A DNA stretch of 39,904 bases from Candidatus Elulimicrobium sp. (GTDB lineage Bacteria; Patescibacteriota; Minisyncoccia; Moranbacterales; UBA9337): assembly GCA_020722485.1 (NCBI GenBank), contig DYKS01000003.1, positions 1-39,904 of the forward strand, given 5' to 3'. Position 1 is the stretch's first letter. The number at the start of each line of letters is the position of its first letter. Both the position numbers and the translations under genes were made by a program. This document shows, in pieces, positions 11,795 to 34,677 of this stretch. Under the pieces are notes generated by a model that was not told where the DNA came from, made no database searches, and saw only the letters and a program-made list of their open reading frames with translations.

Positions 11795-14700
11795 ATGAAC
11801 ACTCAATCAAATCCAACAGATTTCCGCGATCCTTTGAATAAAAAAGAAATTATTCAAAAAACTTTGACAAAATTCAGCAAAGAAACCGAAGAAGAACAAG
11901 CTTCTTTACTGGCCAAAAAACACCAACTGCCTTATTTAGATCTTAATTTATTTTTTATCCAAGCCAACGAAGTCAAATTATTAGCGGAGAAAGAAGCGTT
12001 AAAATATCACGCCGCCATTTTTCAAAAAATTGGCAAAGAAATTCGCGTCGCCATTACCCAGCCACAAAGCAAAGAAACATTTGATTTTTTTAACGCTTTT
12101 GCTCAAAAAAATGGGTGGCAAGCGAGATTTTTTGTGGTTTCTAATTCTTCTCTATCAAAAGTATTGAAAAAATATTCTTCCGAAGACTTGTTAGATAATT
12201 TAAATCTGATCAAAGTTTCTCTTCATAAAGAAAACTTGGAAAAATTTGAAAAAGATTTTAAAAATCTTTTAGATCTCAAAAACCGTATTTTGGAAATTCC
12301 CATCACTCAAGTAATTGACACTATTTTGGCCGGCGCGATAAAAATGAATGCCAGCGACATCCATTTGGAACCAGAAGAAAAAGAATTGCGTATTCGCTAT
12401 CGTTTAGACGGAATTCTTCATTCTATCGGCGCTTTCCCTTTAAAAGCGCACCGCTCCTTAATCACTCGTATAAAAATAATGGGAGGAATGAAAATTAACA
12501 TTCACGAAACCGCGCAAGATGGAAGTTTTTCTTTTGATTTAGAACAACATAAAATTGACGCTCGAGTCAGTATTATTCCCGGAAATTTCGGGGAAAGCGC
12601 GGTTATTCGTTTACTGGATCAGTCGCAAACACTTTTACAAATAGAAGAATTAGGATTGCGAGGATTGGCTTATGAAGAAATAAAAAGACAAATTAACCGC
12701 CCTAATGGAATGATTTTAACAACGGGACCGACCGGATCGGGTAAAACCACTAGTCTTTATGCTTTTATTAATAGAATAAATACACCCAATGTCAAAATTA
12801 TTACCATTGAAGATCCGATTGAATACCAAATTAAAGGTATTTCGCAAACGCAAGTTTCCCCAGAAAACGGTTATACTTTCGCCAATGGACTGCGAGCTAT
12901 TGTTCGCCAAGATCCGGATGTCATTCTGATTAGTGAAATCCGCGATGATGAAACAGCTGATATCGCCATCAATTCCGCCCTTACTGGTCATTTGGTTTTA
13001 AGCACGCTTCACACCAAAGGAGCCAGCGCTTCTATTTCCCGTTTGCTTGAATTAAGGATAAGACCATCTTTAATTTCTTCATCGCTGAATACTATTATTT
13101 CCCAAAGATTAGTGCGTCGCCTTTGTCTTCATTGCAGAGAAGAATATGTCCCCGCGCCAGAAACAGTAGATTGGATCAAAAAAATTATTTCTTTAATTTC
13201 TCCAAAGTCTAAAGTAGAAATTCCTAAAAAAATAGAGAAACTCTACCGAGCCAAAGGTTGCGCTTATTGTAATGGAACGGGATACAAAGGACGCATCGGA
13301 ATTTTTGAAGTGCTTAGCATCAATGAAAAAATCAGCGATTTAATCCGAAATATGGAAAGCGAGAAAAAAATCAGCGAAGCGGCAATAGAAGAAGGAATGA
13401 TAACTATGGTTCAAGACGGAATTTTAAAAGCAATAGAAGGCAATACTTCTATTGAAGAAATATGGCGCGTAACGGATCAGGCTGATTTTTTAGAAAAAAT
13501 TTATGAAAAATTAATGGAGCAATCTCTGGCGCGCTCAATTCAAATTAAAGAAAAGGACTTAAAAACAGTTTCCGAACATATAATTTCTTTTGAAAAATTA
13601 AAAACTTTTTTGGAAAATCTTAAAACAGAAGATTTACTACGTTATGTTTTAGCCGGAGCGCTTTTGATTAATGCTAGTGATATTCATTTAGAACCAACCG
13701 AGAAAAATGTTTTGATCAGAATGCGTTTAGATGGCGTTTTACAAAATATAGCTTCTTTTCCACTAACTGAATATCCTTCTCTTTTAGGAAATATTAAAAC
13801 CCTAAGTGGATTATTGTATGAACAACAAGCCGGTATTCAAGACAGCCGTTTTTCCGTTGATTTAGAGAAACCCTTTGGAAAACTTACGATGCTAAAAAAC
13901 GACATTCGTGTTTCTATTATTTTAGGCGGCTATGGAGAAACAGCTGTATTGCGAATCCTTAATCAAAATTTTTCTAAAATAGGGATTGAATCTTTAGGAA
14001 TTCGTCAAGAAAATTTAAAAAAAATTAAAAAAGAAATCCATAAACCTTATGGTTTATTTCTAAACACCGGACCTACTGGATCAGGAAAAACCACTACTCT
14101 TTATGAAATTTTAAAAATTCTTAACAAACCAGAAATTAAAATCATTACCATTGAAGATCCAATTGAATATCGTTTAGATGGAATTATTCAAACCCAAATA
14201 AATGAAGAAAACGGATATACTTTTTCTAGCGCTCTTCGCTCTATTTTGCGCCAAAATCCCAATGTTATAATGTTAGGAGAAATCCGAGACGAAGAAACCG
14301 CTCAAATGGCAATCCAGGCAGCCCTTACTGGTCATTTGGTTTTAAGCACGCTTCACACTAATGACGCCGCTGGAGCAATTTCTAGATTTATTAATTTAGG
14401 CGTCCGTTCCGATGATTTAACAACATCTGTTGGCAGTTTTATGGCGCAAAGATTAGTGAGAAAATTATGCGACTGCAAAATTAAAACTGAACTTTCGGTG
14501 TCAGAAAAAGAAAAAATTAAAAAAGCGCTTTCCACTATTTCTCCTCAAGCAAAAATAAAAATTCCTCAAATTAAATACGCTTATCGCCCTAATGGCTGTC
14601 CCAAATGCAACGGGATTGGCTACAAAGGACGCGTGGCTATCAGTGAGATTTTAACAGTTAATGATAAAATAAAGGAAATGATTAATAATGGAGATCCCGT

Positions 14701-14821
14701 TTATAAAATCAAGAAACAGGCCCAAGAAGATGGAATGATTACTATGTTTCAAGATGGAGTTTTGAAAGTTCTAGAAGGAGAAACCACTTTAGAAGAAGTG
14801 GAAAAAGTAACCGGAGAATAA
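11795..14821 (+). CDS. Tandem-duplicated GspE/PilB-type secretion/pilus-assembly ATPase: T2SSE_N-like N-domain plus two complete ATPase modules
   Basis: Module 1: GPTGSGKTTS, IITIEDPIEYQI, DPDVILISEIRD, TGHLVLSTLHT, CLHC...CAYCNGTGYKGR. Module 2: GPTGSGKTTT, IITIEDPIEYRL, NPNVIMLGEIRD, TGHLVLSTLHT, CDC...CPKCNGIGYKGR. One uninterrupted 1008-codon ORF. Confidence 0.85.
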   Translation: MNTQSNPTDFRDPLNKKEIIQKTLTKFSKETEEEQASLLAKKHQLPYLDLNLFFIQANEVKLLAEKEALKYHAAIFQKIGKEIRVAITQPQSKETFDFFNAFAQKNGWQARFFVVSNSSLSKVLKKYSSEDLLDNLNLIKVSLHKENLEKFEKDFKNLLDLKNRILEIPITQVIDTILAGAIKMNASDIHLEPEEKELRIRYRLDGILHSIGAFPLKAHRSLITRIKIMGGMKINIHETAQDGSFSFDLEQHKIDARVSIIPGNFGESAVIRLLDQSQTLLQIEELGLRGLAYEEIKRQINRPNGMILTTGPTGSGKTTSLYAFINRINTPNVKIITIEDPIEYQIKGISQTQVSPENGYTFANGLRAIVRQDPDVILISEIRDDETADIAINSALTGHLVLSTLHTKGASASISRLLELRIRPSLISSSLNTIISQRLVRRLCLHCREEYVPAPETVDWIKKIISLISPKSKVEIPKKIEKLYRAKGCAYCNGTGYKGRIGIFEVLSINEKISDLIRNMESEKKISEAAIEEGMITMVQDGILKAIEGNTSIEEIWRVTDQADFLEKIYEKLMEQSLARSIQIKEKDLKTVSEHIISFEKLKTFLENLKTEDLLRYVLAGALLINASDIHLEPTEKNVLIRMRLDGVLQNIASFPLTEYPSLLGNIKTLSGLLYEQQAGIQDSRFSVDLEKPFGKLTMLKNDIRVSIILGGYGETAVLRILNQNFSKIGIESLGIRQENLKKIKKEIHKPYGLFLNTGPTGSGKTTTLYEILKILNKPEIKIITIEDPIEYRLDGIIQTQINEENGYTFSSALRSILRQNPNVIMLGEIRDEETAQMAIQAALTGHLVLSTLHTNDAAGAISRFINLGVRSDDLTTSVGSFMAQRLVRKLCDCKIKTELSVSEKEKIKKALSTISPQAKIKIPQIKYAYRPNGCPKCNGIGYKGRVAISEILTVNDKIKEMINNGDPVYKIKKQAQEDGMITMFQDGVLKVLEGETTLEEVEKVTGE

Positions 14822-16377: not shown

Positions 16378-17022
16378 ATGTTTAATCCGCTTAAAAACAA
16401 AAGAGAAAACGAACACGTGATTTTGATAGTGCGCCGTCATTGGTTTGATATCCTTAAACAATTTTTTACAATCATTCTAGCGCTTTTTCTCTGGGCGGGA
16501 AGTTTTTTCCTTTTTTCTTTTTTGATTCAAAATTCCTTCCTCTCAGAAAATTTACATTATTTGATTTTACTTTTCCAAAGCAGTTTCGTTCTTTTGATTT
16601 GGCTTTATTCTTTCCTTGTTTGGATAGATTATTATTTTGATGTTTGGATTATCACTACTGAAAAAATTATCAACATTGAGCAAAAAAGCTTGTTTCTCCG
16701 TCACACCAGTGAATTGCAAATTTTAAAAATTCAAGATGTTTCCACGGAAGTTAAAGGACTTATTCCCAGTATTTTAAATTACGGCGAGGTGCATATTCAA
16801 TCAGCTGGCGCGGTTAATCGCTTTCTTTTTCATAATGTTCCCGACCCTTACGCCATCAAGAAAATAATTATGGATTTACAAAAAAACCAGCATCAAGAAA
16901 ATTTCACTTCAATAAAAAAAACTTTTGATAATTATAAATCTTATCCAACAGAAAAACTGCTTTTCCAAAAAACCTCTCCTTCTGATTCCACCTCTCCTTT
17001 TCACAACAAACCCGCTAATTAA
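16378..17022 (+). CDS. YdbS/YdbT-like membrane protein with bacterial PH (bPH_2) domain
   Basis: ..VILIVRRHWFDILKQF.. followed by two TM helices and a ..DVW.IT..KII.....LF.R....L.I.KIQDV.. block typical of bPH_2 proteins. Confidence 0.55.
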   Translation: MFNPLKNKRENEHVILIVRRHWFDILKQFFTIILALFLWAGSFFLFSFLIQNSFLSENLHYLILLFQSSFVLLIWLYSFLVWIDYYFDVWIITTEKIINIEQKSLFLRHTSELQILKIQDVSTEVKGLIPSILNYGEVHIQSAGAVNRFLFHNVPDPYAIKKIIMDLQKNQHQENFTSIKKTFDNYKSYPTEKLLFQKTSPSDSTSPFHNKPAN

Positions 17023-17184: not shown

Positions 17185-17661
17185 TGGGTCACGTTTAATT
17201 CTCGTTGTTTGAAATTGCGTGTTCATAGAGTATTAAGTATAAGGTGTCTTTTTTGCTCTTGGAATCGCAAAAAAAGCGAATGTATAAGTTCACTAAATAT
17301 TGCGCTCTATGAGAAAATAGGGCGATGTCATTTTTTTATCATATTCATTGCAAATATACGGGTATTAAAGGTATAAAGTTCAATAGAACGCTATAAGACG
17401 AATTCATTGATTTCCATAAATCCGATCTGCTTAATCCGGATATTTTTAACCGCAAAATCATTGATTATCTGATCTGGTATAATACCAAATGAACGCATTA
17501 TGCTTTTGAAAATCTGCTATCTCCATTACAATTCATAATGTCGTTGCAAACTAATAACTTTAATTTGTCTCAAGAGCGCAATCAAGAGTGGACTCATACA
17601 AACCCTGTCATTGTTTATAAATTTTGTTAAAATATTACTAATAAGTAACTTTTTTAAAAAA

Positions 17662-19602
17662 ATGCGGGTGAAACCAATAGGCGTGAAAAAAATTTCATTG
17701 CTTACTTTTTTATTTGGAATGACATTCTTCGCTTTTTTTGTAATTACCGGATTTTCTTTAGCGGAAGAAACCGACTTAATTGCAACCGAAATAATGTACG
17801 ACGCGGAAGGAATCGATAATGACAAAGAATGGATTGAGTTTAAAAATAAATCCCAAAATTCTTTGAAAATTTTTAATTGGAAACTGATAGAATCCAGCAA
17901 ACCAGAAACGCAACATAAAATTTCTCTTTATCAGGGCAATTCCGTTATAGAACCGGAAGAATATTTCATTATTGCAGAAAACGCGAAAGAATTTATTAAA
18001 AAAATTCCGGAAGATTATTCGGCGACGGTTTTGGATAGCAGTTTTTCGTTGAGTAACACGAAAGAAGAAATAATTCTCTTAGATGCTGACGGAAACCTAT
18101 TAGCAACCACTTCTTATGAAAATTCTGCGGGAGGGAAAGGCAACGGCTTTACTTTAGAATGGGAAGACGGGGTTTGGCGAGAAAGTTTTATCAAAGGCGG
18201 AACACCGGGAAAGAAAAATTCACAAAAATCTAACCAGCCGGAATATTCCGATCAAATAAAATTAAATGAAATTCTTCCTAACCCCAAAGACAATGAAAAA
18301 ACAGACGAATTTATTGAGTTGTATAATTTTTCTTCTGATGAAATTAATTTAGAAAATTGGATATTAAAAGACGCATCTAAGTCGGGAAAGTTTGTTTTTC
18401 CGAAAGATTATTTTATAAAACCAAATGGCTATCTTGTTGTTTATAAAAACTTGTTTAAATTTGCTATGAATAATTCCGGCGGAGAAGAAGTTTTTCTTTT
18501 AAATCCGAATGAAAAAATTGTTTCTTCTGTTTCTTATGAAAAATCTTTTGAGGGGATTTCCTATAATTTTGATTCAGAAAATAATAATTGGCGCTGGAGT
18601 AAGTTCCTAACGCCGGGAGAAAAAAACAAATTGGATAAAATTCCTAAAATTGAAATAAAAAAAGACAAGAAAATATACAAAAATTTTTACGCCACCTTTG
18701 AGATAAAAATTCACTCCAAAAACAAGAAGGAAAACAGAGTTACATGGGACTTTGGCGATGGTAAAAAAAGTTACAAAAGAAAAACTCGTCATAAATATTC
18801 AAAAACCGGAACCTATCTAGTCAAACTTAAGATTTTTACTGGCAGTGAAGAAATAGTAAAACAATTTTCCGTCAAAGTGAGAAAATACCCGCATCCAAAA
18901 GTAAAATTTATTCGTTTTTCTCCCAATCCTGCTGGAAAAGACAGTGAGCAAGAATGGATTGAGATCAAAAATTATTCATCCAAAAAAATCAATTTAAAAG
19001 ATTGGAGCATTAAAACCGGCGTTTCTTCTCAAAAAGCGGTTAATCATTCAATTAATGATGATTTTTTCCTGAAAGCGGGAGAAAGAGGCGTTTTAACACG
19101 CGACTTTTCCAAATTTTCTTTAAACAATAAAAAGGGAGAAATAAAATTGCTTTACCCGGACGGAAAAACGGCAGATAAAATCACCTATAAAAAAGAAAAC
19201 GAAATCAAAGATGACGAAATTTATGAAAAGAAAAACGGAGGCAAGTGGCAATGGCAAGAAAAATCCATTCTCGCTATTTCCAAACCCAAACAAGAAACAA
19301 TAATAAAAAATAGTCCGCTAAAACCAGAAAAATTTATTGAAGTTCCAAAGGAGTATATCGGTCAGAAATCTTATCCAAAAAAGACGAATTCTCCTATTTT
19401 AAATTATGGATTATTCGCTTATACCGAGAAAAATCCTCGCTACTCAACCGAATTTGTTTTGGGAATGGAAACGAAAAAAATCTCCGCTGAAAATTTTTTA
19501 GCAAAAACAAAAACCGCTAAACAAGAACATTACTTGGTGTCTTTCGCTAAACAATTAAATAAGAAACTAAACAATTTATTGATTAAAATATCCAATCATT
19601 GA
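17662..19602 (+). CDS. Secreted/anchored protein with three lamin-tail-domain (LTD) repeats and one PKD-like domain
   Basis: Signal/TM segment after MRVKPIGVKK. LTD signatures: ..ATEIMYDAEG.DNDKEWIEFKN.., ..NEILPNPKDNEKTDEFIELYNFS..NLENWILKD.., ..FSPNPAGKDSEQEWIEIKNYS..LKDWSIK... PKD-like VTWDFGDG..........YSKTGTYLVKLKI. Start set at ATG 17662 rather than TTG 17611. Confidence 0.75.
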   Translation: MRVKPIGVKKISLLTFLFGMTFFAFFVITGFSLAEETDLIATEIMYDAEGIDNDKEWIEFKNKSQNSLKIFNWKLIESSKPETQHKISLYQGNSVIEPEEYFIIAENAKEFIKKIPEDYSATVLDSSFSLSNTKEEIILLDADGNLLATTSYENSAGGKGNGFTLEWEDGVWRESFIKGGTPGKKNSQKSNQPEYSDQIKLNEILPNPKDNEKTDEFIELYNFSSDEINLENWILKDASKSGKFVFPKDYFIKPNGYLVVYKNLFKFAMNNSGGEEVFLLNPNEKIVSSVSYEKSFEGISYNFDSENNNWRWSKFLTPGEKNKLDKIPKIEIKKDKKIYKNFYATFEIKIHSKNKKENRVTWDFGDGKKSYKRKTRHKYSKTGTYLVKLKIFTGSEEIVKQFSVKVRKYPHPKVKFIRFSPNPAGKDSEQEWIEIKNYSSKKINLKDWSIKTGVSSQKAVNHSINDDFFLKAGERGVLTRDFSKFSLNNKKGEIKLLYPDGKTADKITYKKENEIKDDEIYEKKNGGKWQWQEKSILAISKPKQETIIKNSPLKPEKFIEVPKEYIGQKSYPKKTNSPILNYGLFAYTEKNPRYSTEFVLGMETKKISAENFLAKTKTAKQEHYLVSFAKQLNKKLNNLLIKISNH

Positions 19603-21032: not shown

Positions 21033-21701
21033 ATGAAAACTAGTTATTTTGTGGATTATTTTGTTTCTCAAGGAGTTCCTTTAGAAACCGTGTTTCTGAT
21101 TTTAATGCTTCCCGTAATTGCCACTATGATCGCTTTCTTTCGGCAAGTTTTGGGAATAAAGGCTTTCGGCATTTACACACCATCGATAATAACTTTCGCT
21201 TTTTTAGCAATGGATTTCGGCTCAGAAAATAGCGGCATTAAATACGGAGTGATTATTTTTCTAAGTGTCATTTTTGCCGGAATGATTACTCGCTACATTC
21301 TCAAAAAATTACGTCTGCTTTATTTGCCTCGCGTGGCTATCACCTTAAGCATCGTGTCTTTCGCCATTTTAACTGTTTTGGTATTAGGTGGTTCTTTACA
21401 ACGTACCGGTCTAGCTTCGGTTTCTGTTTTTCCAATTTTAATTATGATTACTATTGTAGAAAAATTCGTCGCTGCCCAAATTGAAAAAGGAAACAAAACC
21501 GCCATTATTTTGGCCGCGGAAACTTTGTTTATTTCCTTGATGGGATATTATTTGACTAATTGGAAAACGCTCTCTTCTTTCATTTTGACTTATCCTTGGA
21601 TAATACTCTTTACTTTTCCTTTAAATTTTTTCTTAGGCAAATGGACTGGCTTGCGTCTTTCTGAATATTGGCGTTTTAAAGAAATTTTGAAAAAAATGTA
21701 A
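21033..21701 (+). CDS. Stand-alone 7TM module of the type usually fused to an inactive transglutaminase (7TM_transglut-like)
   Basis: 222 aa with about 7 hydrophobic helices. ..FFRQVLGIKAFGIYTPSII.., ..LPRVAITL.., ..FPILIMITIVEKF.. and C-terminal ..WTGLRLSEYWRF.. match my memory of this family. No transglutaminase domain is present. Confidence 0.6.
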   Translation: MKTSYFVDYFVSQGVPLETVFLILMLPVIATMIAFFRQVLGIKAFGIYTPSIITFAFLAMDFGSENSGIKYGVIIFLSVIFAGMITRYILKKLRLLYLPRVAITLSIVSFAILTVLVLGGSLQRTGLASVSVFPILIMITIVEKFVAAQIEKGNKTAIILAAETLFISLMGYYLTNWKTLSSFILTYPWIILFTFPLNFFLGKWTGLRLSEYWRFKEILKKM

Positions 21702-21724
21702 TTATTTTTCGGCGAAAAAACATT

Positions 21725-23140
21725 ATGTTGAATTTTTTTAAAAACAGCCGCAAAATTCTAGGAATGAATTCTCGCAATTTAAATTATATTCGCCTTTATA
21801 ATCATAAAAAAGCCATTTGTATTGCGGATGATAAATTGTTAAGTAAAAGAATTTTAAAAAAAAATGACTTACCAGTTCCCGCGTTGATTGAAAAAATCAC
21901 CTCTCACCAAGAACTGGAAAATTTTGATTGGACAAAATTACCTAACAGCTTTGCGCTTAAACCAAACCGCGGATTAGGAGGAGAAGGAATTTTAGTTGTT
22001 TATGGAAAGAAAAAAAATGGAAATGAAGCCTGGATTAAAGCGGACGGATCGATAGTTACTTTGGATGATCTAAAAAATCATATCAGTAATATTTTGGATG
22101 GAAATTTTTCTCTCTCCAGCGTGCCGGATAAAGCTTTTTTTGAAGAAAGAGTGCGACTTCTAAAATTATTCAAACCTTACACTTTTAAAGGCATTCCGGA
22201 TGTCCGTATAATTGTTTACAATAGCGTTCCGGTTATGGCAATGTTGCGCCTTCCCACTAAAGAATCGGGCGGAAAAGCTAATCTTCAACAGGGAGCAGTG
22301 GGTGTAGGCATTGATATGGCTAGTGGAGTTACTACTTCCGCCGTTCAAGGAAAAAAATCCCACTTAATTGAATATGCGCCGGGAACCAGATTGCCGCTTT
22401 CCGGAATCAAGATTCCTTATTGGAAAGAACTTTTGGAATTAGCGATTAAAGCGCAAAGGGTGTCCGGTTTGGGTTTTTTAGGAGCGGATATCGCCATTGA
22501 TCAAGAAAAGGGTCCGGTTTTTTTGGAATTAAACGCTCGCCCCGGCCTTTCCATTCAAATCGCCAATCTGGCCGGACTTCAAGAAAGACTGCAAAGAGTG
22601 TCGGGACTGAAAATAAAAACAATTAAGAGAGGTATTAATGTGGGAATGGATTTGTTTGGAGGAGAAATTGAGGAAGAAATTGAAGAAATTTCCGGCAAGA
22701 GAATTATCGGTTCGGTGGAAAAAATAAAGCTGATTGGCAAAAACGGAAAAGAAATTGAAGTGGAAGCCAGAGTAGACACGGGAGCGAGTATTTCCGCTAT
22801 TGATAAAAAATTAGCAATAGAGCTTGGATTTGATGAGGCGGTAAAATACTGGGAAGATTTTCATTTGGATCATACTTTAAATACTCAAGAAATTGAAGAA
22901 TTAAGCAAAAATAAAGTCTGGAAAGAATTAGAAAAACATCCAGATGTGATTGGTGTAGCAAAAATCTTTTCTTCACATGGAGCCTCTTATCGGATTAAAA
23001 TCAAAGTTATGTTAACAATAGATTCGCTTCCAATTATTTCCAAACTTTCGATTGCAGATAGATCGGGTTTGAATTATCCGGTTTTAATTGGCAGACGCGA
23101 TCTTAAAAAATTTTTAATTGATGTAAATAAAACAATATGA
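21725..23140 (+). CDS. Fusion protein: alpha-L-glutamate-ligase-related ATP-grasp (ATPgrasp_ST / TIGR02291-like) plus C-terminal retropepsin-like 'ATP-dependent zinc protease' domain (Zn_protease/RimB-like)
   Basis: N-terminus ILGMNSRNLNYIRLYN.K.....DDKLLSKRIL.KNDLPVP and ..FLGADIAID.EKGPVFLELNARPGL.. indicate ATP-grasp. From about aa 325, IGSVEKIKL......IEVEARVDTGASISAID ... DRSGLNYPVLIGRRDLKKFLIDV indicates the retropepsin-like fold. Confidence 0.7.
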   Translation: MLNFFKNSRKILGMNSRNLNYIRLYNHKKAICIADDKLLSKRILKKNDLPVPALIEKITSHQELENFDWTKLPNSFALKPNRGLGGEGILVVYGKKKNGNEAWIKADGSIVTLDDLKNHISNILDGNFSLSSVPDKAFFEERVRLLKLFKPYTFKGIPDVRIIVYNSVPVMAMLRLPTKESGGKANLQQGAVGVGIDMASGVTTSAVQGKKSHLIEYAPGTRLPLSGIKIPYWKELLELAIKAQRVSGLGFLGADIAIDQEKGPVFLELNARPGLSIQIANLAGLQERLQRVSGLKIKTIKRGINVGMDLFGGEIEEEIEEISGKRIIGSVEKIKLIGKNGKEIEVEARVDTGASISAIDKKLAIELGFDEAVKYWEDFHLDHTLNTQEIEELSKNKVWKELEKHPDVIGVAKIFSSHGASYRIKIKVMLTIDSLPIISKLSIADRSGLNYPVLIGRRDLKKFLIDVNKTI

Positions 23141-24090
23141 AAAAGGTAATGATTCTTTTTGGCAAAAGCGATTGGAAAAAAGCTAAACCTTTCTCTAATA
23201 AAGATTATCAATATTCTTACGAATATTTTTACGATCTTTGTCAAAAAAACGGGATTCAAATGTATCGCGCTTCTTACGAGTGGTATGACTATCAAAAGCA
23301 TCTTTTTAAACACGCCTGGATTTTTAAAAGTAAAGGAGGAAAATGGAAAAGAGTTTCTAATATTAAGCCGGATTTGATTTACGATAAAACTAAAGCGCGT
23401 TTGGAAATATATTATAAAAAAGAATTAATAAGAAAAGCTTTTCCTTTTATAAATAATCTGATTTTTACTCAATTAATTGACGACAAACTAACAACAAGTT
23501 TGCTTTTTGAAAAATGGTGTAAAAAAAGTTGGGTAATAGAAAACAAAAACGATTTAAAAAAATTTTTGCCAAAAATAAAAACAGAAAAAGCGGTCTTAAA
23601 ACCTCTTCTTGAAAGTGGAGGAAAAGGGATACAAATAATGGATAAAGGAGACATCCTTAAAAAAGCTATTATTGATTGTCCTTATTTACTTCAGGAATTT
23701 ATTGATTCTTCTTATGGTGTGCCGGGCGTAAGCGACAAATCGCACGATTTGCGTTTAGTTTTTATTAATGATGAAATAATTTATTCCTACATAAGAGAGC
23801 CGAAAGAAGGCAGTTATTTAGCCAATTTATCCCAGGGAGGAAGTCTAAAGATTGTTCCAAAGAACAAGTTGCCAAAATCTCTTAATCCGATAATTAATAA
23901 AGCCAATAAGCTTTTCGCCACTTTTAATCCGCGAATTTATTCAATTGATTTTATGTTTGATAGAAAAAAACAACCTTGGATAGTGGAACTCAACTCTATG
24001 CCCGGATTATTTTTCACGCCGGCAGAAAAACCTTATATGTTGAAAATGTATGGAAAGTTATTGAATGTTTTTAAAAAATATATGCGATAA
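23137..24090 (+). CDS. ATP-grasp ligase (YheC/YheD- or RimK-related)
   Basis: ..KAVLKPLLESGGKGIQIM.., ..HDLRLVFINDEIIYSYIREPKEGSYLANLSQGGS.., ..SIDFMFD.KKQPWIVELNSMPGL... The ATG overlaps the upstream stop (ATGA at 23137-23140). Confidence 0.65.
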   Translation: MKKVMILFGKSDWKKAKPFSNKDYQYSYEYFYDLCQKNGIQMYRASYEWYDYQKHLFKHAWIFKSKGGKWKRVSNIKPDLIYDKTKARLEIYYKKELIRKAFPFINNLIFTQLIDDKLTTSLLFEKWCKKSWVIENKNDLKKFLPKIKTEKAVLKPLLESGGKGIQIMDKGDILKKAIIDCPYLLQEFIDSSYGVPGVSDKSHDLRLVFINDEIIYSYIREPKEGSYLANLSQGGSLKIVPKNKLPKSLNPIINKANKLFATFNPRIYSIDFMFDRKKQPWIVELNSMPGLFFTPAEKPYMLKMYGKLLNVFKKYMR

Positions 24091-24097
24091 TTTTTTT

Positions 24098-24958
24098 ATG
24101 CGTATCTGTATAATTACGGACAATAAAAATTCTTATTCCTCGAAAAAATTTTTCAAGGAAGCAACTGCCAAAAATATTAAGGTTGATTTTATATTATGGA
24201 AAAGTATTTTTTTGGACGAGAAAGGTGTTATTTTTGGCGGTGATATTCCCCTGAATGAATTTGACGGAGTAATTCTGCGCAGCTCCAAGAAATTATCGGT
24301 GCCTAATATAGTAATTGTGGAATATTGCAAAGCCAATAATATCCGTCTTTTGAATAAAGATTTTTATTTTCGTTATCAATCAACAAATAAGTTACGGCAG
24401 TATTTAATTTTTAAGACAAAAGAGATACCTTGTTTGGAAACTTTTTATGGAGAGAAAGTAAGCTATTCTTTTTTAAAAAGAAGGATTGGATTGCCGTTTG
24501 TTGCCAAATCCATAAATGGCAGTTTGGGTAAGCAAATTTTTAAAATAAAAAACAGACAAGAATTTAAGAATTTCATTCGACAGCAAAAAGTTAAAAAACA
24601 GTTGTATATATTTCAAAAATTTTATTCCGGCGCCACTGATTATCGTGTTTTCATTGTCGGTAAAAAAATTTTTGGTCCGGTCAAGAGAATCGCTCCACTC
24701 GGAAAGTGGAAAACAAACGAAGTTGGTTCCGCGCATAAACGCTGTGAAAAAGAAAAACGTGTGCTTAATTTAGCAAAAAAAATTGCCCAAAAAACCAAAA
24801 TAGAATTTGCCGGTTTAGATATTTTGATTGATGCTGAAGGTCAGCCACGGATTATTGAAATGAACACTATGGGTGTTTTTAGGGTTTTTGATACTGTTTA
24901 TCCGGAAATCGATATCGCCAAAAAAACTATTGAGCTTATGGTAAATACAATGAAATAA
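24098..24958 (+). CDS. RimK-family ATP-grasp ligase
   Basis: MRICIITD... pre-ATP-grasp domain, ..LPFVAKSINGSLGKQIFKIKN.., ..DYRVFIVGKKIFGPVKRIA..GKWKTN.., ..FAGLDILIDAEGQPRIIEMNT... Start set at ATG 24098, 7 nt after the upstream stop; the track start 24065 would overlap the previous gene. Confidence 0.7.
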   Translation: MRICIITDNKNSYSSKKFFKEATAKNIKVDFILWKSIFLDEKGVIFGGDIPLNEFDGVILRSSKKLSVPNIVIVEYCKANNIRLLNKDFYFRYQSTNKLRQYLIFKTKEIPCLETFYGEKVSYSFLKRRIGLPFVAKSINGSLGKQIFKIKNRQEFKNFIRQQKVKKQLYIFQKFYSGATDYRVFIVGKKIFGPVKRIAPLGKWKTNEVGSAHKRCEKEKRVLNLAKKIAQKTKIEFAGLDILIDAEGQPRIIEMNTMGVFRVFDTVYPEIDIAKKTIELMVNTMK

Positions 24959-27724: not shown

Positions 27725-28870
27725 TTATTTTTTAATTGGCATCACCATATACAAAAACCCTTCCATAATTTCATTCTCTTTATCGCCGGCATTTTTAAAA
27801 ATCAATGGAGAATGCGAGTTATTCACAAAAATAACTGCCTTGTGAGTGGATAAGGAATTTAATCCATCTAAAAAATAACGGGGATTTAAATAAATATCTT
27901 GATCATCTCCGGATAAAAATTCTGCTTTTAAACGCGTTTCATTTTCCCCTGATTCGTTAGAATAAGACTTTATTATAATTTCTTTTTTTTGTATATCTAT
28001 CTTTAAATTAACCTCCCCTGATTTATTGTCCGTAAAAACACTTGCCACCTTCACCGCTTTAATTATTTCATCTCTAAAAACAAAAATTTGGGTGCTAAAT
28101 TTATTGGGAATTATTTGTTTATAATCAGGATAATTACCATTTATTAAGCGCGACATTAATAAATTTCCATTTATTTCAAAAAATACCTGACCATCTTCAA
28201 AAGCAATTTTTATTTTTTCTGTTTCTAAATCAATTAATCTTACTAGTTCCATAAATGTTGCCGCTGGAATAATATGAGATGCTATTTTTTCCTCATTAGG
28301 TGATTCTTTTCTCTCTATAATAGGTATAACCCCTTCCGATAAACGAAAACTGTCTGTGGCGGCTAAAATAAGCTTATTTTCATTTTCAGAAATATTTATC
28401 CCTGTTAATTCTATTCTATTTTGAGCAGTAGCCACTGAAACCAAAATTTTTGAAATAATTTCTTTGGTTTTTAACGCGGGAATTTCTAGGAAAAATTCAG
28501 TTTTAATCTTAGGTATTATAGGAAAATCTTCATCATTTATTCCTTTTATTTTCACTTTATAATTTCCGGATATTATTTTTAAGTCATAACCTTCTGTTTC
28601 TATTTCAATATTAGTTGTTTCACTAGGTAAATTTGCCATAAATCCAGCTAATGTTTTGGCTGGAATTGCTATTTTTCCTGATTCCTCTATTTTTACCCTT
28701 AAAGTAGAAATAATTCCTATTTCTAAATTAGTGGCAGATAATTTCAAAACACCATTATCCGCTTCCATTAAAATATTATTTAAAATAGGAAGAGAATTTT
28801 GTTTTCCTGCTATTTTATCTGTATAGTCCACTGCTTTTTTAAGGTTTTTGTAAGTGCAAGATAATTTCAT
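27725..28870 (-). CDS. dnaN: DNA polymerase III beta sliding clamp
   Basis: 381 aa, three-domain clamp pattern (..LPILNNILMEA....L.L.ATNLEIGI.., ..ATDSFRLSE.., ..YLYMVMPIK), directly downstream of dnaA. Confidence 0.9.
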   Translation of the reverse strand: MKLSCTYKNLKKAVDYTDKIAGKQNSLPILNNILMEADNGVLKLSATNLEIGIISTLRVKIEESGKIAIPAKTLAGFMANLPSETTNIEIETEGYDLKIISGNYKVKIKGINDEDFPIIPKIKTEFFLEIPALKTKEIISKILVSVATAQNRIELTGINISENENKLILAATDSFRLSEGVIPIIERKESPNEEKIASHIIPAATFMELVRLIDLETEKIKIAFEDGQVFFEINGNLLMSRLINGNYPDYKQIIPNKFSTQIFVFRDEIIKAVKVASVFTDNKSGEVNLKIDIQKKEIIIKSYSNESGENETRLKAEFLSGDDQDIYLNPRYFLDGLNSLSTHKAVIFVNNSHSPLIFKNAGDKENEIMEGFLYMVMPIKK

Positions 28871-28930
28871 AAGAGTATTTATAATTACTTTTTAACATAA
28901 TTTATTATTTATTATTAAGAAATGTTTTTT

Positions 28931-29138
28931 TGTGGATAAATGGAAAAAACCTACTGCTTGACAAAAAATATGTATAAAAAAATGTTTATAACCTGCGTGA
29001 ATAATTATAGGATAAAAAAAGAATAAATTGTTAGTAAGAAATAAATTAAAATAAATTTTAGTTATCCACATAGTGGTTCAATATAGTATTCAACTGGTTA
29101 TCAACAGAAAATAGGGTATTATTAACAACTTATCCACA
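28931..29138. promoter_or_regulatory. oriC part, dnaA-dnaN spacer: DnaA boxes TGTGGATAA 28931-28939, TTATCCACA 29062-29070, TTATCAACA 29098-29106 (1 mismatch), TTATCCACA 29130-29138
   Basis: Read directly. The surrounding spacer is extremely AT-rich and could serve as an unwinding element. Confidence 0.7.
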
Positions 29139-29139
29139 G

Positions 29140-30534
29140 TTAAACATTTAATTTTTTATTTAATTGTTTAAATTCAGACTCAATTTCTTTTTTTTCATAG
29201 ATAGCGCTGCTTATTTTTTTGCAAGCATACATAACAGTTGTATGATCTCTTCCACCTAAAAAATCTCCAATTTCAGGAAAAGATAATTTTAAATGATAAC
29301 GAATTAAAAACATTGCCATTTGTCTACAAAAAGCCACTTTTTTCTTTCTATTTTTATTAAAAAGGTCTTTTTCTTGTATTTCATAAAAATCTGCTACGGT
29401 TTTAATTATTTTTTGGCGGGTTAAATTTAATGAATTGTTTTGCTGTAAAAGATCTAAAAGAATTTCTTTAATATCATTTAAACTTAATTCTCTTTGATTT
29501 AACTGGGAATAAGCGATTAATTTATTTAACGCGCCCTCTAATTCTCGTACGTTTTTATTAAAGTTTTCCGCTAGGAAACGCAAATGCTCTTTCTTTATAG
29601 AAAAATTTTTTTCTGTTGCTTTTTGTTTTAAAATAGCAACGCGCGTTTCCATGTCAGGATTACTTACATCCGCAATCATTCCCCCTTCAAAACGGGAACG
29701 GAGCCTTTCTTCTAATATACTTATTTCTTTAGGGGGACGATCGCTACTTAAAACTACTTGTTTGTTTATTTGATAAAGAGCGTTGAAAATATGAAAAAAT
29801 TCAGTTTGAGTTTTTTCCTTGCCAGAAATAAATTGAATATCATCTATGATTAATAAATCGGTTTTTTTATAATGTTCTTTAAATTTATCTATTGTCCCGT
29901 TTTTTATAGAGTCAATTAAATCAGTGGTAAATGCTTCTGATGAGATGTATTTTACTACTTTTTCCGGATTTTTACGCAAAACCTCATTTCCAATGGATTG
30001 GAGGAGATGAGTTTTTCCTAATCCTACGCCACCATAAATAAATAAAGGGTTGTAAACCATACCCGGTTTTTGAGAAACAGCATAACAAGCCGCTCTAGCT
30101 AATTCATTATTTTCTCCCACTATGAAATTTTCAAAAGTATAACGAGGATTAAGATTGTTTTTTGGGTTTAATAAAGTATTTCCGGAATAAGTGGCTTGAA
30201 AATGAACTGGCGCGGAGTTTGTTTTAAAATAAGAATTATTTTTTACGCCATCAATAGTTTTCGTCACAGAAGCAGATTTTTCCTTAATATTTCCATTTAT
30301 TACGCATTTTATTTCTTTAATATCGCTTTGAAAGTTACGCAAAGAATTAAGAATTATTTTATTAAATTTGTTTTCTAGCCATTCTTTAGCAAATCCATTG
30401 GGAACACCAATAACAACCGTTCCATTTTGATTGGAAATAATATGCGTGTCCTTAAACCAAGTGACAAATTGGGCGCTAGACAAAGAAAGTTCAGCTTCAG
30501 CTAAGACGGAATTCCAAAGAGATGTATTATCCAT
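29140..30534 (-). CDS. dnaA: Chromosomal replication initiator DnaA
   Basis: ..LNPRYTFENFIVGENN.LA.AA...V...PG..YNPLFIYGGVGLGKTHLL (Walker A), LLIIDDIQF (Walker B), C-terminal DNA-binding ..IGDFLGGRDHTTVMYACKKI... Start set at ATG 30534 (MDNTSLWNSV...). The longer track ORF would cover the DnaA box at 30564-30572. Confidence 0.95.
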   Translation of the reverse strand: MDNTSLWNSVLAEAELSLSSAQFVTWFKDTHIISNQNGTVVIGVPNGFAKEWLENKFNKIILNSLRNFQSDIKEIKCVINGNIKEKSASVTKTIDGVKNNSYFKTNSAPVHFQATYSGNTLLNPKNNLNPRYTFENFIVGENNELARAACYAVSQKPGMVYNPLFIYGGVGLGKTHLLQSIGNEVLRKNPEKVVKYISSEAFTTDLIDSIKNGTIDKFKEHYKKTDLLIIDDIQFISGKEKTQTEFFHIFNALYQINKQVVLSSDRPPKEISILEERLRSRFEGGMIADVSNPDMETRVAILKQKATEKNFSIKKEHLRFLAENFNKNVRELEGALNKLIAYSQLNQRELSLNDIKEILLDLLQQNNSLNLTRQKIIKTVADFYEIQEKDLFNKNRKKKVAFCRQMAMFLIRYHLKLSFPEIGDFLGGRDHTTVMYACKKISSAIYEKKEIESEFKQLNKKLNV

Positions 30535-30563
30535 AATAATTGATTTATTAAGACAATTTGATT

Positions 30564-30615
30564 GTGGATAAAGTATAGCACAAGATAAAAATAATACCAA
30601 AAAACCTGTGGATAA
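30564..30615. promoter_or_regulatory. oriC part, upstream of dnaA: DnaA boxes TGTGGATAA at 30564-30572 and 30607-30615
   Basis: Read directly. They are followed by about 240 nt of highly AT-rich spacer before the rpmH promoter. Confidence 0.65.
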
Positions 30616-30855
30616 GTATGTTAATAAATTGTAAATAACTTATATCTATTAGATTTTATCGCATTGTTTATGATTCTTGTAGGATAGAATTATTAATTAA
30701 TTTCTCTATTTGTTTATATTTCTAAATAATAATTTTTTTATACATTATTTCTTTATATTCTTTATAAACGGGAATTTAGTTTGTTTTTTATAATTCCAGT
30801 ATATTTAATTTTAATGAAGCGTTGTAATTATTTTTTGAAATTAAGATGCGTCGCA

Positions 30856-30884
30856 TTGACCTTATTCGCTTCTCCTGATAAACT
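30856..30884 (+). promoter_or_regulatory. Sigma70-like promoter candidate for rpmH: TTGACC, 17-nt spacer, TAAACT
   Basis: Read directly, about 57 nt upstream of ATG 30941. Confidence 0.45.
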
Positions 30885-30940
30885 GATTTATATGGTCTTG
30901 CGACTATTATTTTTTAAAAAACAATTTTTATAAAAATTTT

Positions 30941-31078
30941 ATGAAAAGAACATATCAACCCAAAAAAAATCGCAGAAAAAAGAGACACGGATTTTTAAAA
31001 AGAAGCAGTACCAGAGATGGAAAAAATGTTTTAACGCGCCGTCGTCGAAAAGGAAGAAAAAAACTAACAACTGTCTAG
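30941..31078 (+). CDS. rpmH: 50S ribosomal protein L34
   Basis: Not in the supplied track (45 aa). My translation is [45 protein letters not shown], the classic L34 sequence in the classic position divergent from dnaA. Confidence 0.9.
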
Positions 31079-31099
31079 AAAAAAGGGAAAAATAAAAAA

Positions 31100-31813
31100 A
31101 TGAGTTTTATTTTCAATTCTTTTGTTTATCAACCTTTGTATAATATTTTAATTTTTTTCTACAATATTTTGGGAAATGATTTTGGTGTTGCCATTATTGC
31201 TACTACATTGGTTTTGAAGGCGGTTTTTATTCCTCTTTCTAAAAAACAAATAGAGTCGCAGAAGAAACTGCAAGAATTACAGCCAGAATTGAAAAAAATT
31301 CAAGAAAAAAACAAAAACAATAAAGAAAAACAAACCAAAGAAACATTGGAGTTTTATAAAAAAAATAAAGTTAATCCTTTTTCTGGTTGTTTGCCATTGA
31401 TTTTTCAGTTGGTTTTTTTAATTGCTATTTATCGAATTATTATGAAAATTTCCGGATCAAATTTTCAAGTAGAAGCCGGATTATTATATCCGTTTATAAC
31501 CAACCCCGGTTCTATCAAGAGTTTCTTTTTAGGTTTTCTGGATATGGCTAAACCTAATTACTATCTTGCTTTTTTGGCGGCTATTGCTCAATATTGGCAA
31601 GCTCGTTCAATGATGATTGGTCAAAAAAACACATTAAACAAAACGGATAAAAAAGATTTTTCTCAAGCGATGAGTCAACAGATGATGTACTTGGGACCAG
31701 TTTTAACTTTCTTTTTCGGGATGCAATTTGCGGCGGGATTAGCGTTATATTGGTTGACATCCACTCTGTTTTCTGTTTTTCAACAAGAATATATTTTTAA
31801 AAAGAGTAAATAA
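31100..31813 (+). CDS. yidC: Membrane protein insertase YidC (short, Oxa1-like form)
   Basis: ..IPLSKKQIESQKKLQELQPE..., ..NPFSGCLPLIFQL.., ..GLALYW..S.LFSV.QQ... Confidence 0.9.
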   Translation: MSFIFNSFVYQPLYNILIFFYNILGNDFGVAIIATTLVLKAVFIPLSKKQIESQKKLQELQPELKKIQEKNKNNKEKQTKETLEFYKKNKVNPFSGCLPLIFQLVFLIAIYRIIMKISGSNFQVEAGLLYPFITNPGSIKSFFLGFLDMAKPNYYLAFLAAIAQYWQARSMMIGQKNTLNKTDKKDFSQAMSQQMMYLGPVLTFFFGMQFAAGLALYWLTSTLFSVFQQEYIFKKSK

Positions 31814-32320: not shown

Positions 32321-32334
32321 ATATTTTTGGGTAA

Positions 32335-32367
32335 TTGTCGCGCAGTGTCGGTTTTACTGCGCGGCAA
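32335..32367 (+). other. GC-rich 12-bp hairpin between jag and the flippase gene
   Basis: TTGTCGCGCAGT 32335-32346 pairs with ACTGCGCGGCAA 32356-32367 (one G-U pair), 9-nt loop. No trailing T-run. Confidence 0.5.
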
Positions 32368-32380
32368 TCGTCGCAATAAA

Positions 32381-33799
32381 GTGGTTGCCCGAAAAATAGC
32401 TTACAATATAGCGCTCAATACGATTTTTAAAGTTCTTTCCACTGCGTTGGCTTTAGTGGGAATTGGATTTATTACTCGTTATTTAGGAAAAGAAGGTTTT
32501 GGAAATTACGCCACTGTTTTGGCGTTTTTCGCTTTTTTTTCTTCTTTATTGGATTTGGGTTTATATACCATTTCCACCCGAGAAATATCTCGACAGGGAG
32601 CGGATGAAGAAAAAATTATCGGCAATGTTTTTTGGTTGCGATTTTTTTCTTCCGTGGCGTTATTTTTAATTTCACCTTTAATTGTCTTCTTATTGCCTTA
32701 TCCGGAAGAAGTTAAAAAAGGAATACTGCTGGCTGCCGGCGCCTTTGTTTTTTCTTCTTCTTATCTAGTATTAAATGGAGTTTTTCAAAAAAATTTAGTT
32801 ATTTACAAAGTAACCGGAGCGGAATTAATTGGGAAAATTTTACAAGTAAGTTTTGTAATTTTGACAGTTTTGTATGATTGGGGTTTTACGGCGATTGTTT
32901 TATCTTTACTTTTGAATATGATCTTTAATTTTGTAGCCGTTTATTATTTGTGTCGTCGGTATGTAAAAATAAGATTTCTAATAAACTTTTCTTATTGGAA
33001 AAAGTTTTTAAGACACTCTTTGCCAATGGGTGTGGCTGTTTTTGTTAGTTTTTTATATTTTAAAACGGATACTATTTTACTTTCTCTTTTGCGTTCCAGT
33101 CAGGATGTTGGAATTTATAACGCGGCTTATAAAATTATTGAAAATATTACTTTTTTTCCAGCGATGATAATGGGATTAATTTTTCCACTTATGTCTAAGA
33201 ATATTTTTTCTGAAAAAACTCTTTTTGAAAAAATTTCTCATAAAACTTTTAAAATCTTCTTTCTTTTAGTTATTCCTATGGTAATTGGAGCGCTTTTTTT
33301 AGCTGATGATCTGGTTTTTTTGATTGGAGGAAAAGATTTTTCTCAATCAGCCAATGTATTGCGAATTTTAATTTTTTCTTTGGCATTTATTTTTTTTGGA
33401 CATTTTTTCAATTATATGCTTATCGCCGGAAATTTACAGAAAAAATTAATGCAAATTTTATTTTTTTGCGCCGCTTTTAATATAACCGCCAATTTGATTT
33501 TTATTCCATTTTTTTCTTATTATGCTTCCGCCATGATTTCATTGGCAACTGAAGCGCTAGTGGTTTTTACTACCGCTTTTTTAGCGGCAAAAAAATTAGG
33601 TTATATTCCTCGTATAGAGAAAGGAATAAATTTTTTATTTTCCGGCGCGGTAATGGCGGGGTTTCTTTTTTTATTTCGCGATTTTCACTTTCTTTTTTTG
33701 ATTGTAGGAGGGGCGGTTGTTTATTTTTTTCTACTTGGTTTAACTGGGACAATTACTAAACAAGAAATAATTAGTCTTTTAATTAAAAAACAAGCATGA
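32381..33799 (+). CDS. MOP-superfamily polysaccharide/oligosaccharide flippase (Wzx-like)
   Basis: About 12-14 TM helices. N-terminus ..ARKIAYNIALNTIFKVLSTALALVGIGFITRYLG.EGFG.Y is typical of Wzx/MurJ-like proteins. I prefer GTG 32381, because the track start TTG 32327 would translate through the hairpin. The start is uncertain. Confidence 0.75.
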   Translation: MVARKIAYNIALNTIFKVLSTALALVGIGFITRYLGKEGFGNYATVLAFFAFFSSLLDLGLYTISTREISRQGADEEKIIGNVFWLRFFSSVALFLISPLIVFLLPYPEEVKKGILLAAGAFVFSSSYLVLNGVFQKNLVIYKVTGAELIGKILQVSFVILTVLYDWGFTAIVLSLLLNMIFNFVAVYYLCRRYVKIRFLINFSYWKKFLRHSLPMGVAVFVSFLYFKTDTILLSLLRSSQDVGIYNAAYKIIENITFFPAMIMGLIFPLMSKNIFSEKTLFEKISHKTFKIFFLLVIPMVIGALFLADDLVFLIGGKDFSQSANVLRILIFSLAFIFFGHFFNYMLIAGNLQKKLMQILFFCAAFNITANLIFIPFFSYYASAMISLATEALVVFTTAFLAAKKLGYIPRIEKGINFLFSGAVMAGFLFLFRDFHFLFLIVGGAVVYFFLLGLTGTITKQEIISLLIKKQA

Positions 33800-34671: not shown

Positions 34672-34677
34672 AAAGCA

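Follow-up and report, generated by a model that had tools for sequence, protein, structure and literature searches.

A gene cluster of the Rlo/Rim kind with a retropepsin-like protease fused to its ATP-grasp ligase in Candidatus Elulimicrobium and related Patescibacteria

Introduction

The closest described relatives of the gene cluster that we consider here are the rloABC operon of Pseudomonas aeruginosa, for which genetics and structures were reported by Lormand et al. (mBio 2025; PMC12239564), and the RimB-RimK pair (PMC11957791). The cluster lies at positions 21033-24958 of a DNA stretch from Candidatus Elulimicrobium sp., namely positions 1 to 39,904 of contig DYKS01000003.1 (assembly GCA_020722485.1), and we refer to that whole stretch of 39,904 nucleotides as the window. 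In P. aeruginosa, the retropepsin RloA is secreted and cuts stretches of eight or more Glu residues, tolerating interruptions poorly; RloB consists of an inactive transglutaminase ectodomain on a seven-transmembrane (7TM) domain, and RloC is a cytoplasmic ATP-grasp protein (PMC12239564). The catalytic residue of RloA is D48, whereas K46, R92, R114, and R137 are pseudo-symmetric ligands of poly-Glu; substitutions R114A and R137A abolish function (PMC12239564). The rloA1-3 triple protease mutant is relieved of its lethal and hypo-osmotic defects when either rloB or rloC is deleted (PMC12239564), as would be expected if RloB and RloC were to make what RloA removes.

The Rlo system matters, in that it affects antibiotic tolerance, biofilm formation, and cell shape in Pseudomonas and Vibrio. 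Mutants in the rlo genes of Pseudomonas show cell-shape, beta-lactam, and hypo-osmotic phenotypes, the Vibrio rlo genes belong to the VxrAB cell-wall-stress regulon, and 96% of the RloB matches in the Rlo paper are proteobacterial (PMC12239564). RimB is a cytoplasmic retropepsin dimer that binds and stimulates RimK and trims the poly-Glu tails on ribosomal protein S6 (PMC11957791).

A preliminary description of the window pointed to a computational prediction of a system made up of a 7TM-transglutaminase, an ATP-grasp enzyme, and a retropepsin-like peptidase. This was correct (the amidoligase paper behind the prediction is reportedly that of Iyer et al. 2009), and the remark that the product is without experimental definition still holds. 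The system has since gone beyond computation, however: it matches rloABC, which was characterized genetically and structurally in 2025 (PMC12239564), and RimB and RimK have been characterized biochemically (PMC11957791). We report that the gene system in the window is real and widespread, and that its architecture sets it apart as a variant not described before among systems of the Rlo/Rim kind. The cluster is best classed as a Moranbacteria-type variant, within the candidate phyla radiation (CPR), of systems that pair an amino-acid ligase with a retropepsin.

Results

Layout of the cluster

Calling of open reading frames (ORFs) revealed four co-oriented and tightly packed ORFs on the + strand, which we refer to as g1 to g4. 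The first, g1 (21033-21701, 222 aa), encodes a stand-alone seven-helix membrane protein, and g2 (21725-23140, 471 aa) encodes the ligase-protease fusion that together with g1 forms the core of the cluster. These are followed by genes for two accessory ATP-grasp ligases, g3 (23137-24090, 317 aa; cassette family C1) and g4 (24098-24958; alternative start 24065; cassette family C2). The junctions given in the preliminary description were borne out: g1 and g2 are separated by 23 nt, g2 and g3 overlap by 4 nt (ATGA), and g3 and g4 are 7 nt apart with the start of g4 at 24098. We adopted this start because the N-termini of homologues support the corresponding Met; conservation in the alignment of g4 homologues begins at MRICIITD, and the frame of the closest homologue opens one residue before the same Met. 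Scans for promoters and terminators were uninformative, since they gave counts no higher than those for shuffled sequence and placed no terminator between the genes, so that the assignment of g1-g4 to one operon follows from their spacing only. An Rfam scan of the window returned no family, and PADLOC defence models gave no match to g1-g4 at E ≤ 0.01. When Pfam and NCBIfam models were run, the domain calls made earlier (7TM_transglut, ATPgrasp_ST, Zn_protease, RimK, and YheCD) all proved correct.

g1 is the membrane module of RloB without its ectodomain

The g1 protein matched the Pfam family 7TM_transglut (PF14402) with an E-value of 2.5e-30 and 106.2 bits (cutoff 25). It aligned solely to positions 298-507, the last 210, of the 508-position RloB model of NCBIfam, and on that whole-protein model it scored 83.6 bits against a cutoff of 900. 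The inactive transglutaminase ectodomain of the RloB type is absent from g1, in which only about 16 residues precede the first transmembrane helix and to which no transglutaminase Pfam family matched; the protein is thus a stand-alone 7TM module, as had been stated. Its AlphaFold2 model (pLDDT, the predicted local distance difference test, 83.8) contains seven long helices and a C-terminal helix, and its Lys and Arg residues are concentrated in alternate loops in a positive-inside pattern. Because of this pattern, the seven predicted helices, and the N-terminal ectodomains found in relatives, we predict that the N-terminus of g1 is outside and the C-terminus inside, with the protein ending in a conserved basic cytoplasmic helix (GxWxGxRxxEYxRF). 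Alignment of 55 homologues revealed 52 invariant columns, and the invariant polar residues within the helices include E143, K144, Q149, E163, and N198. That many invariant polar residues lie in the helices would be compatible with g1 being a conduit. A Foldseek search of the PDB with the g1 model returned nothing at E ≤ 0.001, the best match (NqrD/RnfE; E 0.09, TM-score 0.42) being too weak.

In other CPR lineages the 7TM protein is approximately 510-545 aa in length and carries either an N-terminal PKD domain followed by approximately 170 residues without a family or a 100-aa extension; the bare 222-aa form is a clade-specific reduction. N-terminal fusion of a PKD domain to the 7TM protein was seen at three of the related loci described below (L087, L122, and L152), and archaeal fusions of the 7TM protein to the ligase adjoin very large surface proteins (with PKD, CLIPPER, and beta-helix domains). 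Together with the LTD and PKD surface protein encoded upstream of the cluster in the window, these fusions and neighbours hint at a link between the cluster and surface proteins.

g2 joins an RloC-type ligase to an RloA-type protease

The ATP-grasp domain of g2 (21746-22606, aa 8-294) is of the RloC/TIGR02291 type. Over aa 17-293 it matched ATPgrasp_ST (PF14397) at 2e-71 and 240.9 bits (cutoff 31.4), and it matched TIGR02291 at 3.2e-88 with 295.8 bits, slightly below the hypothetical-equivalog cutoff of 314.2. The nucleotide and Mg ligand residues K79, D255, E268, and N270 are invariant. Although a single-sequence search of the PDB with full-length g2 found nothing at E ≤ 0.01, Foldseek with the AlphaFold2 model of g2 (pLDDT 76.5) gave ArgX/LysX, RimK, Ddl, and the G domain of CphA1 as best matches, with E-values of about 1e-8 to 1e-7. 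In enzymes of the ArgX/LysX, RimK, Ddl, and cyanophycin synthetase types, the coupling of an amino acid to a carboxylate proceeds through an acyl-phosphate. Neither a transmembrane or hydrophobic segment nor a signal peptide was found in g2, g3, or g4 (the maximum 19-residue hydropathy of g2 is 1.36), and g2 should therefore be cytoplasmic.

The C-terminal part of g2 (22697-23137, aa 325-471) is a retropepsin-like domain. It matched Zn_protease (PF05618; aa 328-468) at 5.8e-9 with 36.4 bits (cutoff 27) and the NCBIfam RloA3 model (aa 323-470) at 3.7e-11, and a profile of the domain retrieved the RimB/RloA-type structures 9g58 (2.3e-10), 9g59 (3.7e-9), and 2pma from the PDB, together with weaker matches to the retropepsins Ddi1 and ApRick. 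The RVDTGASIS motif pointed out in the preliminary description is present, and its Asp, D351, is the catalytic one (D351-T-G-A; nt 22775-22786). Through the 9g58 alignment, R349, D351, R423, and R446 of g2 correspond to K46, D48, R114, and R137 of RloA, and the two Arg residues are spaced by 23 residues in both proteins. Three of the four basic poly-Glu ligands of RloA are thus conserved in g2, whereas the fourth, R92, could not be mapped. All four aligned residues, as well as a retropepsin-like IGRRDL motif near the C-terminus, are invariant or nearly so in homologues down to 35% identity. From these residues the protease domain looks active and acid-specific. Note that retropepsins need two chains to form the active site; g2 should therefore act as a dimer or a higher oligomer.

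The two domains are joined by an acidic linker, DLFGGEIEEEIEEISG (22649-22696, aa 309-324). Among 55 sequences L310, F311, G312, G313, E320, S323, and G324 show no variation and E314, E316-318, and I322 almost none, yet AlphaFold2 confidence is low at aa 314-323, so the linker stretch LFGGEIEEEIEEISG is conserved but apparently disordered. It is missing from all five of the stand-alone RloC-like ligases that were inspected, and it may be a pseudosubstrate or a tether. We also entertained the idea that the linker is a site of self-cleavage by the retropepsin domain, and keep it as a low-confidence idea only; it is doubtful because RloA requires at least eight consecutive Glu residues and tolerates interruptions poorly, whereas the linker reads EIEEEIEEI.

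Natural fusions suggest which parts of the core proteins touch

Fusion of ligase to protease as in g2 has 6536 database matches at E ≤ 1e-10, and approximately 90 protein clusters are fusions of the 7TM protein to ATPgrasp_ST, some of them archaeal and a few with an additional transglutaminase core or subtilase domain. When g1 and g2 were concatenated, seven of these fusions aligned collinearly with them, at 31-36% identity and along some 507 columns. The junction between 7TM protein and ligase is direct or nearly so in six of the seven, whereas in the remaining one some 20 residues are inserted. The collinearity implies that the N-terminus of g2 (ILGMNxRN) lies beside the C-terminal helix of g1 on the cytoplasmic side. 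Taken together, the fusions define a complex to reconstitute, in which the C-terminus of the 7TM protein would meet the N-terminus of the ligase and the C-terminus of the ligase meets the protease.

In close relatives of g2 a MATCAP domain (formerly DUF1704) is fused after the retropepsin or is encoded in the adjoining cassette. In more remote lineages, peptidases of other classes are joined to the ligase or encoded beside it: MATCAP in distant CPR loci and subtilases in archaeal contigs. Because MATCAP or subtilase takes the place of the retropepsin in other lineages, the combination of ligase, peptidase, and 7TM protein is a recurring logic in which the type of peptidase is interchangeable. 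A literature search on the Pfam family names and on DUF1704/MATCAP with ATP-grasp in bacteria found nothing useful.

The core is an obligatory and strongly conserved pair

Related loci were drawn from two scans. Moranbacteria-type loci (L005-L084) came from a collection with one genome per species, and distant loci (L085-L164) came from a metagenome scan seeded with distant MATCAP-bearing relatives. The ORFs of these loci were classified with hidden Markov models built from the loci themselves; searches by phmmer with single sequences pick up too few of the divergent ligases.

Identity to the closest relatives of g1 and g2 is 63-74%. Those relatives for which a source is named are assigned to Candidatus Moranbacteria, Parcubacteria, or Patescibacteria, and a related genome was found as one contig 1.27 Mb in length. 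In the one-genome-per-species collection the core genes were present in at least 572 of the 600 pattern matches listed. Wherever a distant locus extends for 1 kb or more upstream of the ligase gene, a co-oriented 7TM gene immediately precedes that gene (61 of 61 loci). The great majority of the Moranbacteria-type loci show the same arrangement, the exceptions including loci cut short upstream. Thus g1 and g2 are an obligatory, strongly conserved pair, and the clustering of the domains found in g1-g4 is far beyond chance.

We also compared identities to the window proteins across 47 genomes. Median identity was 64% for g1 and 62% for g2, as against 61% for RuvC, 58.5% for the penicillin-binding protein (PBP), 50% for YebC, and 42% for DnaN among the neighbours, and 35% for g3 and 27% for g4. 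Being as conserved as RuvC or PBP, g1 and g2 are kept under purifying selection at the level of housekeeping genes.

Moranbacteria-type loci at 60-67% identity also turned up in many public records of metagenome-assembled genomes titled 'uncultured Bdellovibrionales', 'Micavibrio', 'Bathyarchaeia archaeon', and 'Fimivivens' (among them L010, L013, L014, L033, L057, and L066). These titles are probably taxonomic mislabels, or the contigs were mis-binned.

g3 and g4 belong to a combinatorially variable cassette

Between g2 and the PBP gene, 84 loci displayed 41 different cassette compositions. The ligase families found there are the g3-like and g4-like ligases, a third ATP-grasp ligase that is cyanophycin-synthetase-like, and an ATP-grasp_3 enzyme; the other families are a family 4 glycosyltransferase (GT4), YdjC, the MATCAP/DUF1704 metallopeptidase, and a Mur-ligase-like protein. 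Accessory ATP-grasp genes number zero in 4 loci, one in 38, two in 28, three in 13, and four in a single locus. The g3-like plus g4-like cassette exactly as in the window occurs in 3 of the 84. Hence g3 and g4 stem from a combinatorially variable accessory cassette. The preliminary description had proposed to survey gene neighbourhoods for conservation of the fusion and the triple-ligase layout; only the 7TM protein and the ligase-protease fusion turned out to be constant. Variability of the cassette type is characteristic of surface-polymer loci, and by that analogy the cassette may point to an exposed, diversifying product.

In 12 of the 13 cassettes that contain it, the GT4 gene directly follows the g3-like ligase gene, and YdjC (a sugar deacetylase family) and MATCAP recur as well. 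A glycosyltransferase, a deacetylase, and a ligase are the logic of bacillithiol and mycothiol synthesis. Because GT4, YdjC, and ligase recall that logic, some cassettes may build a sugar-amino-acid conjugate.

The g3 protein matched the Pfam families RimK (3.3e-12) and YheCD (2.2e-7), with a weak match to TTL as well. It scored 48.8 bits on TIGR00768 (cutoff 143.4) and 19.2 on the S6--L-glutamate ligase model PRK10446 (cutoff 331), and belongs to the RimK/MptN/CofF/GshB-like group as a divergent representative. The g4 protein matched RimK at 1.2e-15, has a RimK-type pre-ATP-grasp N-domain (Rimk_N, 2.5e-4), and has as its best PDB match the Pseudomonas RimK structure 7qys (2.1e-8). The ligases of g2, g3, and g4 had been described as paralogous; pairwise BLASTP detected similarity at the motif level only, and they are accordingly distinct families rather than recent paralogues. 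The K/D/E/N motifs of ATP-grasp are kept in 29 homologues of g3, and the family of g4, like those of g2 and g3, retains the Lys of ATP-grasp enzymes along with their Asp/Glu/Asn metal ligands, on which grounds all three ligases look catalytically active.

The resemblance of g4 to RimK in both its N-domain and its ATP-grasp domain raises the question of whether the cluster is a cytoplasmic regulator of the RimK/RimB type, in which g4, g2, or both would poly-glutamylate S6 and the retropepsin would trim the tail, thereby tuning translation. This explanation also gains from the protease, which shares a cytoplasmic location with RimB and whose attachment to a ligase echoes the RimB-RimK complex. 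However, g4 reached only 37.8 bits on the S6--L-glutamate ligase equivalog PRK10446 (cutoff 331) and 101.5 bits (5e-29) on the RimK family model TIGR00768 (cutoff 143.4), and g4-like genes are dispensable, many related loci being without them and the median identity noted above being low where they are present. Moreover, the protease is fused not to a RimK-like ligase but to an RloC-type ligase that is always paired with, and sometimes fused to, a membrane protein. No rpsF gene, which encodes S6, was found among the scanned ORFs of the window, the scan having left out four ORFs of at least 90 aa at the 3' end. We therefore consider S6 regulation an improbable function for the cluster.

Some features of the locus recall instead an intracellular storage or osmolyte polymer, either cyanophycin-like or free poly-alpha-glutamate, that would be recycled in the cytoplasm with the 7TM protein serving only as an anchor or sensor. 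The CphA-like ATP-grasp ligase and the Mur-ligase-like gene are found in some, respectively few, of the related cassettes, the g2 model resembles the G domain of CphA1 among other structures, and protease and ligase are on the same side of the membrane, which would allow a cycle of synthesis and degradation. In addition, the authors of the Rlo study discuss glutamate as an osmolyte (PMC12239564). Such a polymer would, however, leave unexplained the strict coupling or fusion of the ligase to a polytopic membrane protein with invariant polar residues inside the membrane. Cyanophycin synthetase models gave only 22-26 bits with the proteins of the cluster (cutoff 850), and no Mur-like domain is encoded in the window. 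This leaves storage with a slim chance.

The neighbouring PBP gene belongs to a lineage synteny block

The order of genes around the cluster is RuvB, a surface protein with LTD and PKD domains, YebC, RuvC, the cluster itself, and a class A PBP, followed by dnaN and dnaA on the opposite strand and by YidC. The order of PBP, dnaN/dnaA, and YidC places the cluster near the replication origin. In the window, as in most Moranbacteria-type loci, the PBP gene (PBP1A) comes after the cluster and has its orientation, and in the preliminary description its adjacency was the ground for a possible role in peptidoglycan: the ligases would add amino acids to the side chain or cross-bridge of a precursor used by the neighbouring PBP. 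ATP-grasp D-Asp ligases that act on peptidoglycan precursors exist, and the phenotypes of Pseudomonas rlo mutants and the VxrAB regulon in Vibrio could be cited in favour of such a role. Nevertheless, we found no specific support for it. Since yebC-ruvC upstream and dnaN/dnaA downstream travel along with the PBP gene, its adjacency is that of an origin-near lineage synteny block. Of 24 well-flanked distant loci, 8 have both the PBP gene and ruvC and 16 have neither, and all keep the 7TM-ligase pair. Furthermore, Ddl family models gave at most 21 bits with g1-g4 (cutoffs about 243-246), no Mur-type model or Mur ligase domain of Pfam or NCBIfam matched them, and a hypervariable cassette is hard to square with a conserved stem peptide. 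We consider peptidoglycan cross-bridge synthesis unlikely for these reasons, although it is true that rlo mutations in Pseudomonas have effects on the cell envelope.

The presence of a protease and a membrane protein alongside ATP-grasp enzymes also brings to mind clusters for ribosomal peptides of the graspetide or microviridin-like type, or other secondary metabolites, for which the ATP-grasp proteins would be macrocyclases, the protease would remove a leader, and the membrane protein would be the exporter. Weak matches of g4 to models of ATP-grasp peptide maturases (4.2e-5, 22.9 bits; 0.028, 13.6 bits) agree with this idea, but these scores are far under the respective cutoffs of 350 and 475. 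No free-standing small ORF that could encode a precursor or acceptor was found in or beside the cluster or in its intergenic spaces, and the core genes behave like those of a core genome, being conserved as RuvC and PBP are, near the origin, and present in nearly all of the pattern matches listed. We regard a ribosomal-peptide cluster as highly improbable.

Other features of the window

Further genes of the window are given here as observations in their own right. The LTD and PKD surface protein (17611-19602, + strand, 663 aa) is encoded two genes upstream of the cluster and belongs to the conserved synteny. Downstream, dnaN and dnaA on the - strand and then YidC on the + strand occupy 27725-31813, and the cumulative GC skew has its minimum near 16-17 kb rather than at dnaA. 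A Wzx-like membrane protein for polysaccharide biosynthesis and two family-2 glycosyltransferases (32327-35451, + strand) form a second envelope-polymer locus approximately 7 kb downstream of the cluster. At 3214-4167 (+ strand), a protein with G5, DUF348, and DPBB (lytic transglycosylase-like) domains has the architecture of wall hydrolases of the resuscitation-promoting-factor type. The 1008-aa product of 11795-14821 (+ strand) matches the type II/IV secretion ATPase family in two separate places (T2SSE, 752 bits); it is unusually long for a PilB-like ATPase and may be a tandem or fused ATPase. Two ORFs, 6591-7916 (- strand, 441 aa) and 16378-17022 (+ strand, 214 aa), had no Pfam match at 1e-5.

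Discussion

The reading that we favour, with a probability of about one half, is that the ligases build an acidic peptide at the cytoplasmic face of the membrane, that the fused protease trims it, and that the 7TM protein hands it to the cell envelope. In this model the N-terminus of the g2 ligase domain would attach it to g1, on the basic face that g1 turns to the cytoplasm, and there the ligase would carry out the ATP-dependent building of an acidic, probably Glu-rich peptide, either as a free chain or as a tail on an acceptor. The g3 and g4 ligases would add further residues or branches and in this way set a strain-specific composition. The retropepsin domain, active only when two chains of g2 pair, would trim the product or limit the length of the chain on the cytoplasmic side, much as RimB acts on RimK, and g1 would pass or present the product to the envelope. 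By analogy, the genetics of the Pseudomonas rlo genes fit such a scheme of making, exporting, and degrading a product.

Several points weigh against this reading. The proposal of a Glu-rich peptide comes from the basic pocket of the protease and the analogy with RimK only, and it is limited in this way because no RloC-type ligase has a defined substrate or product. The Pseudomonas protease is secreted whereas that of the window is cytoplasmic, and therefore the two systems cannot work identically. The role of g1 in export or presentation is purely inferred, its model being without a solved structural relative, and co-transcription of the four genes is read from their spacing. Finally, the acceptor could be a glycan, given that ATPgrasp_ST is named for sugar transferases and that cassettes carry GT4 and YdjC.

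A more tentative extension of the same model, which we rate as rather doubtful but worth stating, is that the core and the variable cassette together constitute a combinatorial, non-ribosomal assembly line, by which these tiny episymbionts would coat their surface with an acidic polymer, peptide or glycopeptide, that differs from strain to strain. Equally tentative is the suggestion that its product could be a previously unrecognised component of the envelope with a role like that of teichoic acid or capsule, the cassette acting like an O-antigen locus. If the product is indeed exposed and diversifying, an envelope component will have gone unrecognised in a large and poorly understood branch of the bacteria. 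The cluster is also of interest as a minimal version of the Rlo system, with no ectodomain and with the protease covalently joined to the ligase, that has been kept in genomes of approximately 1.3 Mb.

The cluster can be compared with several known systems. Like CphA1 and the PgsBCA system for poly-gamma-glutamate, it would polymerize amino acids non-ribosomally at the expense of ATP, and in PgsBCA, too, a ligase in the cytoplasm works with membrane proteins, which serve export; however, there is no membership at the family level, no score comes near its cutoff, and the membrane proteins have no kinship. The tubulin tail code, written by TTL/TTLL ligases and erased by MATCAP/CCP peptidases, shares the logic of ligase plus peptidase on acidic C-terminal tails. 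This is an analogy of logic only, as the window is without a MATCAP gene and no tubulin-like acceptor is known.

With RimABK (PMC11957791, PMC7343187) the cluster has in common a cytoplasmic retropepsin that works with an ATP-grasp enzyme of the alpha-L-glutamate-ligase type, g4 being a member of the RimK superfamily, and the covalent fusion in g2 would be an extreme form of the RimB-RimK partnership. It differs in that the protease is fused to an RloC-type ligase coupled to a membrane protein rather than to RimK, that no gene of the window reaches the cutoffs for RimK or S6 ligases, and that there is no gene for RimA (EAL).

With RloABC the cluster shares more: the RloB-type 7TM module (PF14402), the RloC-type ligase (PF14397/TIGR02291), and the RloA-type retropepsin are encoded by adjacent, co-oriented genes, and the protease of g2 has the DTG motif and basic substrate-binding residues in common with RloA. 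In contrast to RloB, g1 is without the inactive transglutaminase ectodomain of approximately 290 aa. Whereas RloA is secreted by means of a signal peptide, the protease of the window lacks such a peptide and forms the C-terminal extension of a cytoplasmic ligase; moreover, the window adds two ligases from a variable cassette, and the host belongs to a Patescibacteria lineage. The cluster therefore reads as a mixture of the two systems, in which the 7TM and ligase modules are of the Rlo type and the cytoplasmic, ligase-tethered protease is as in Rim.

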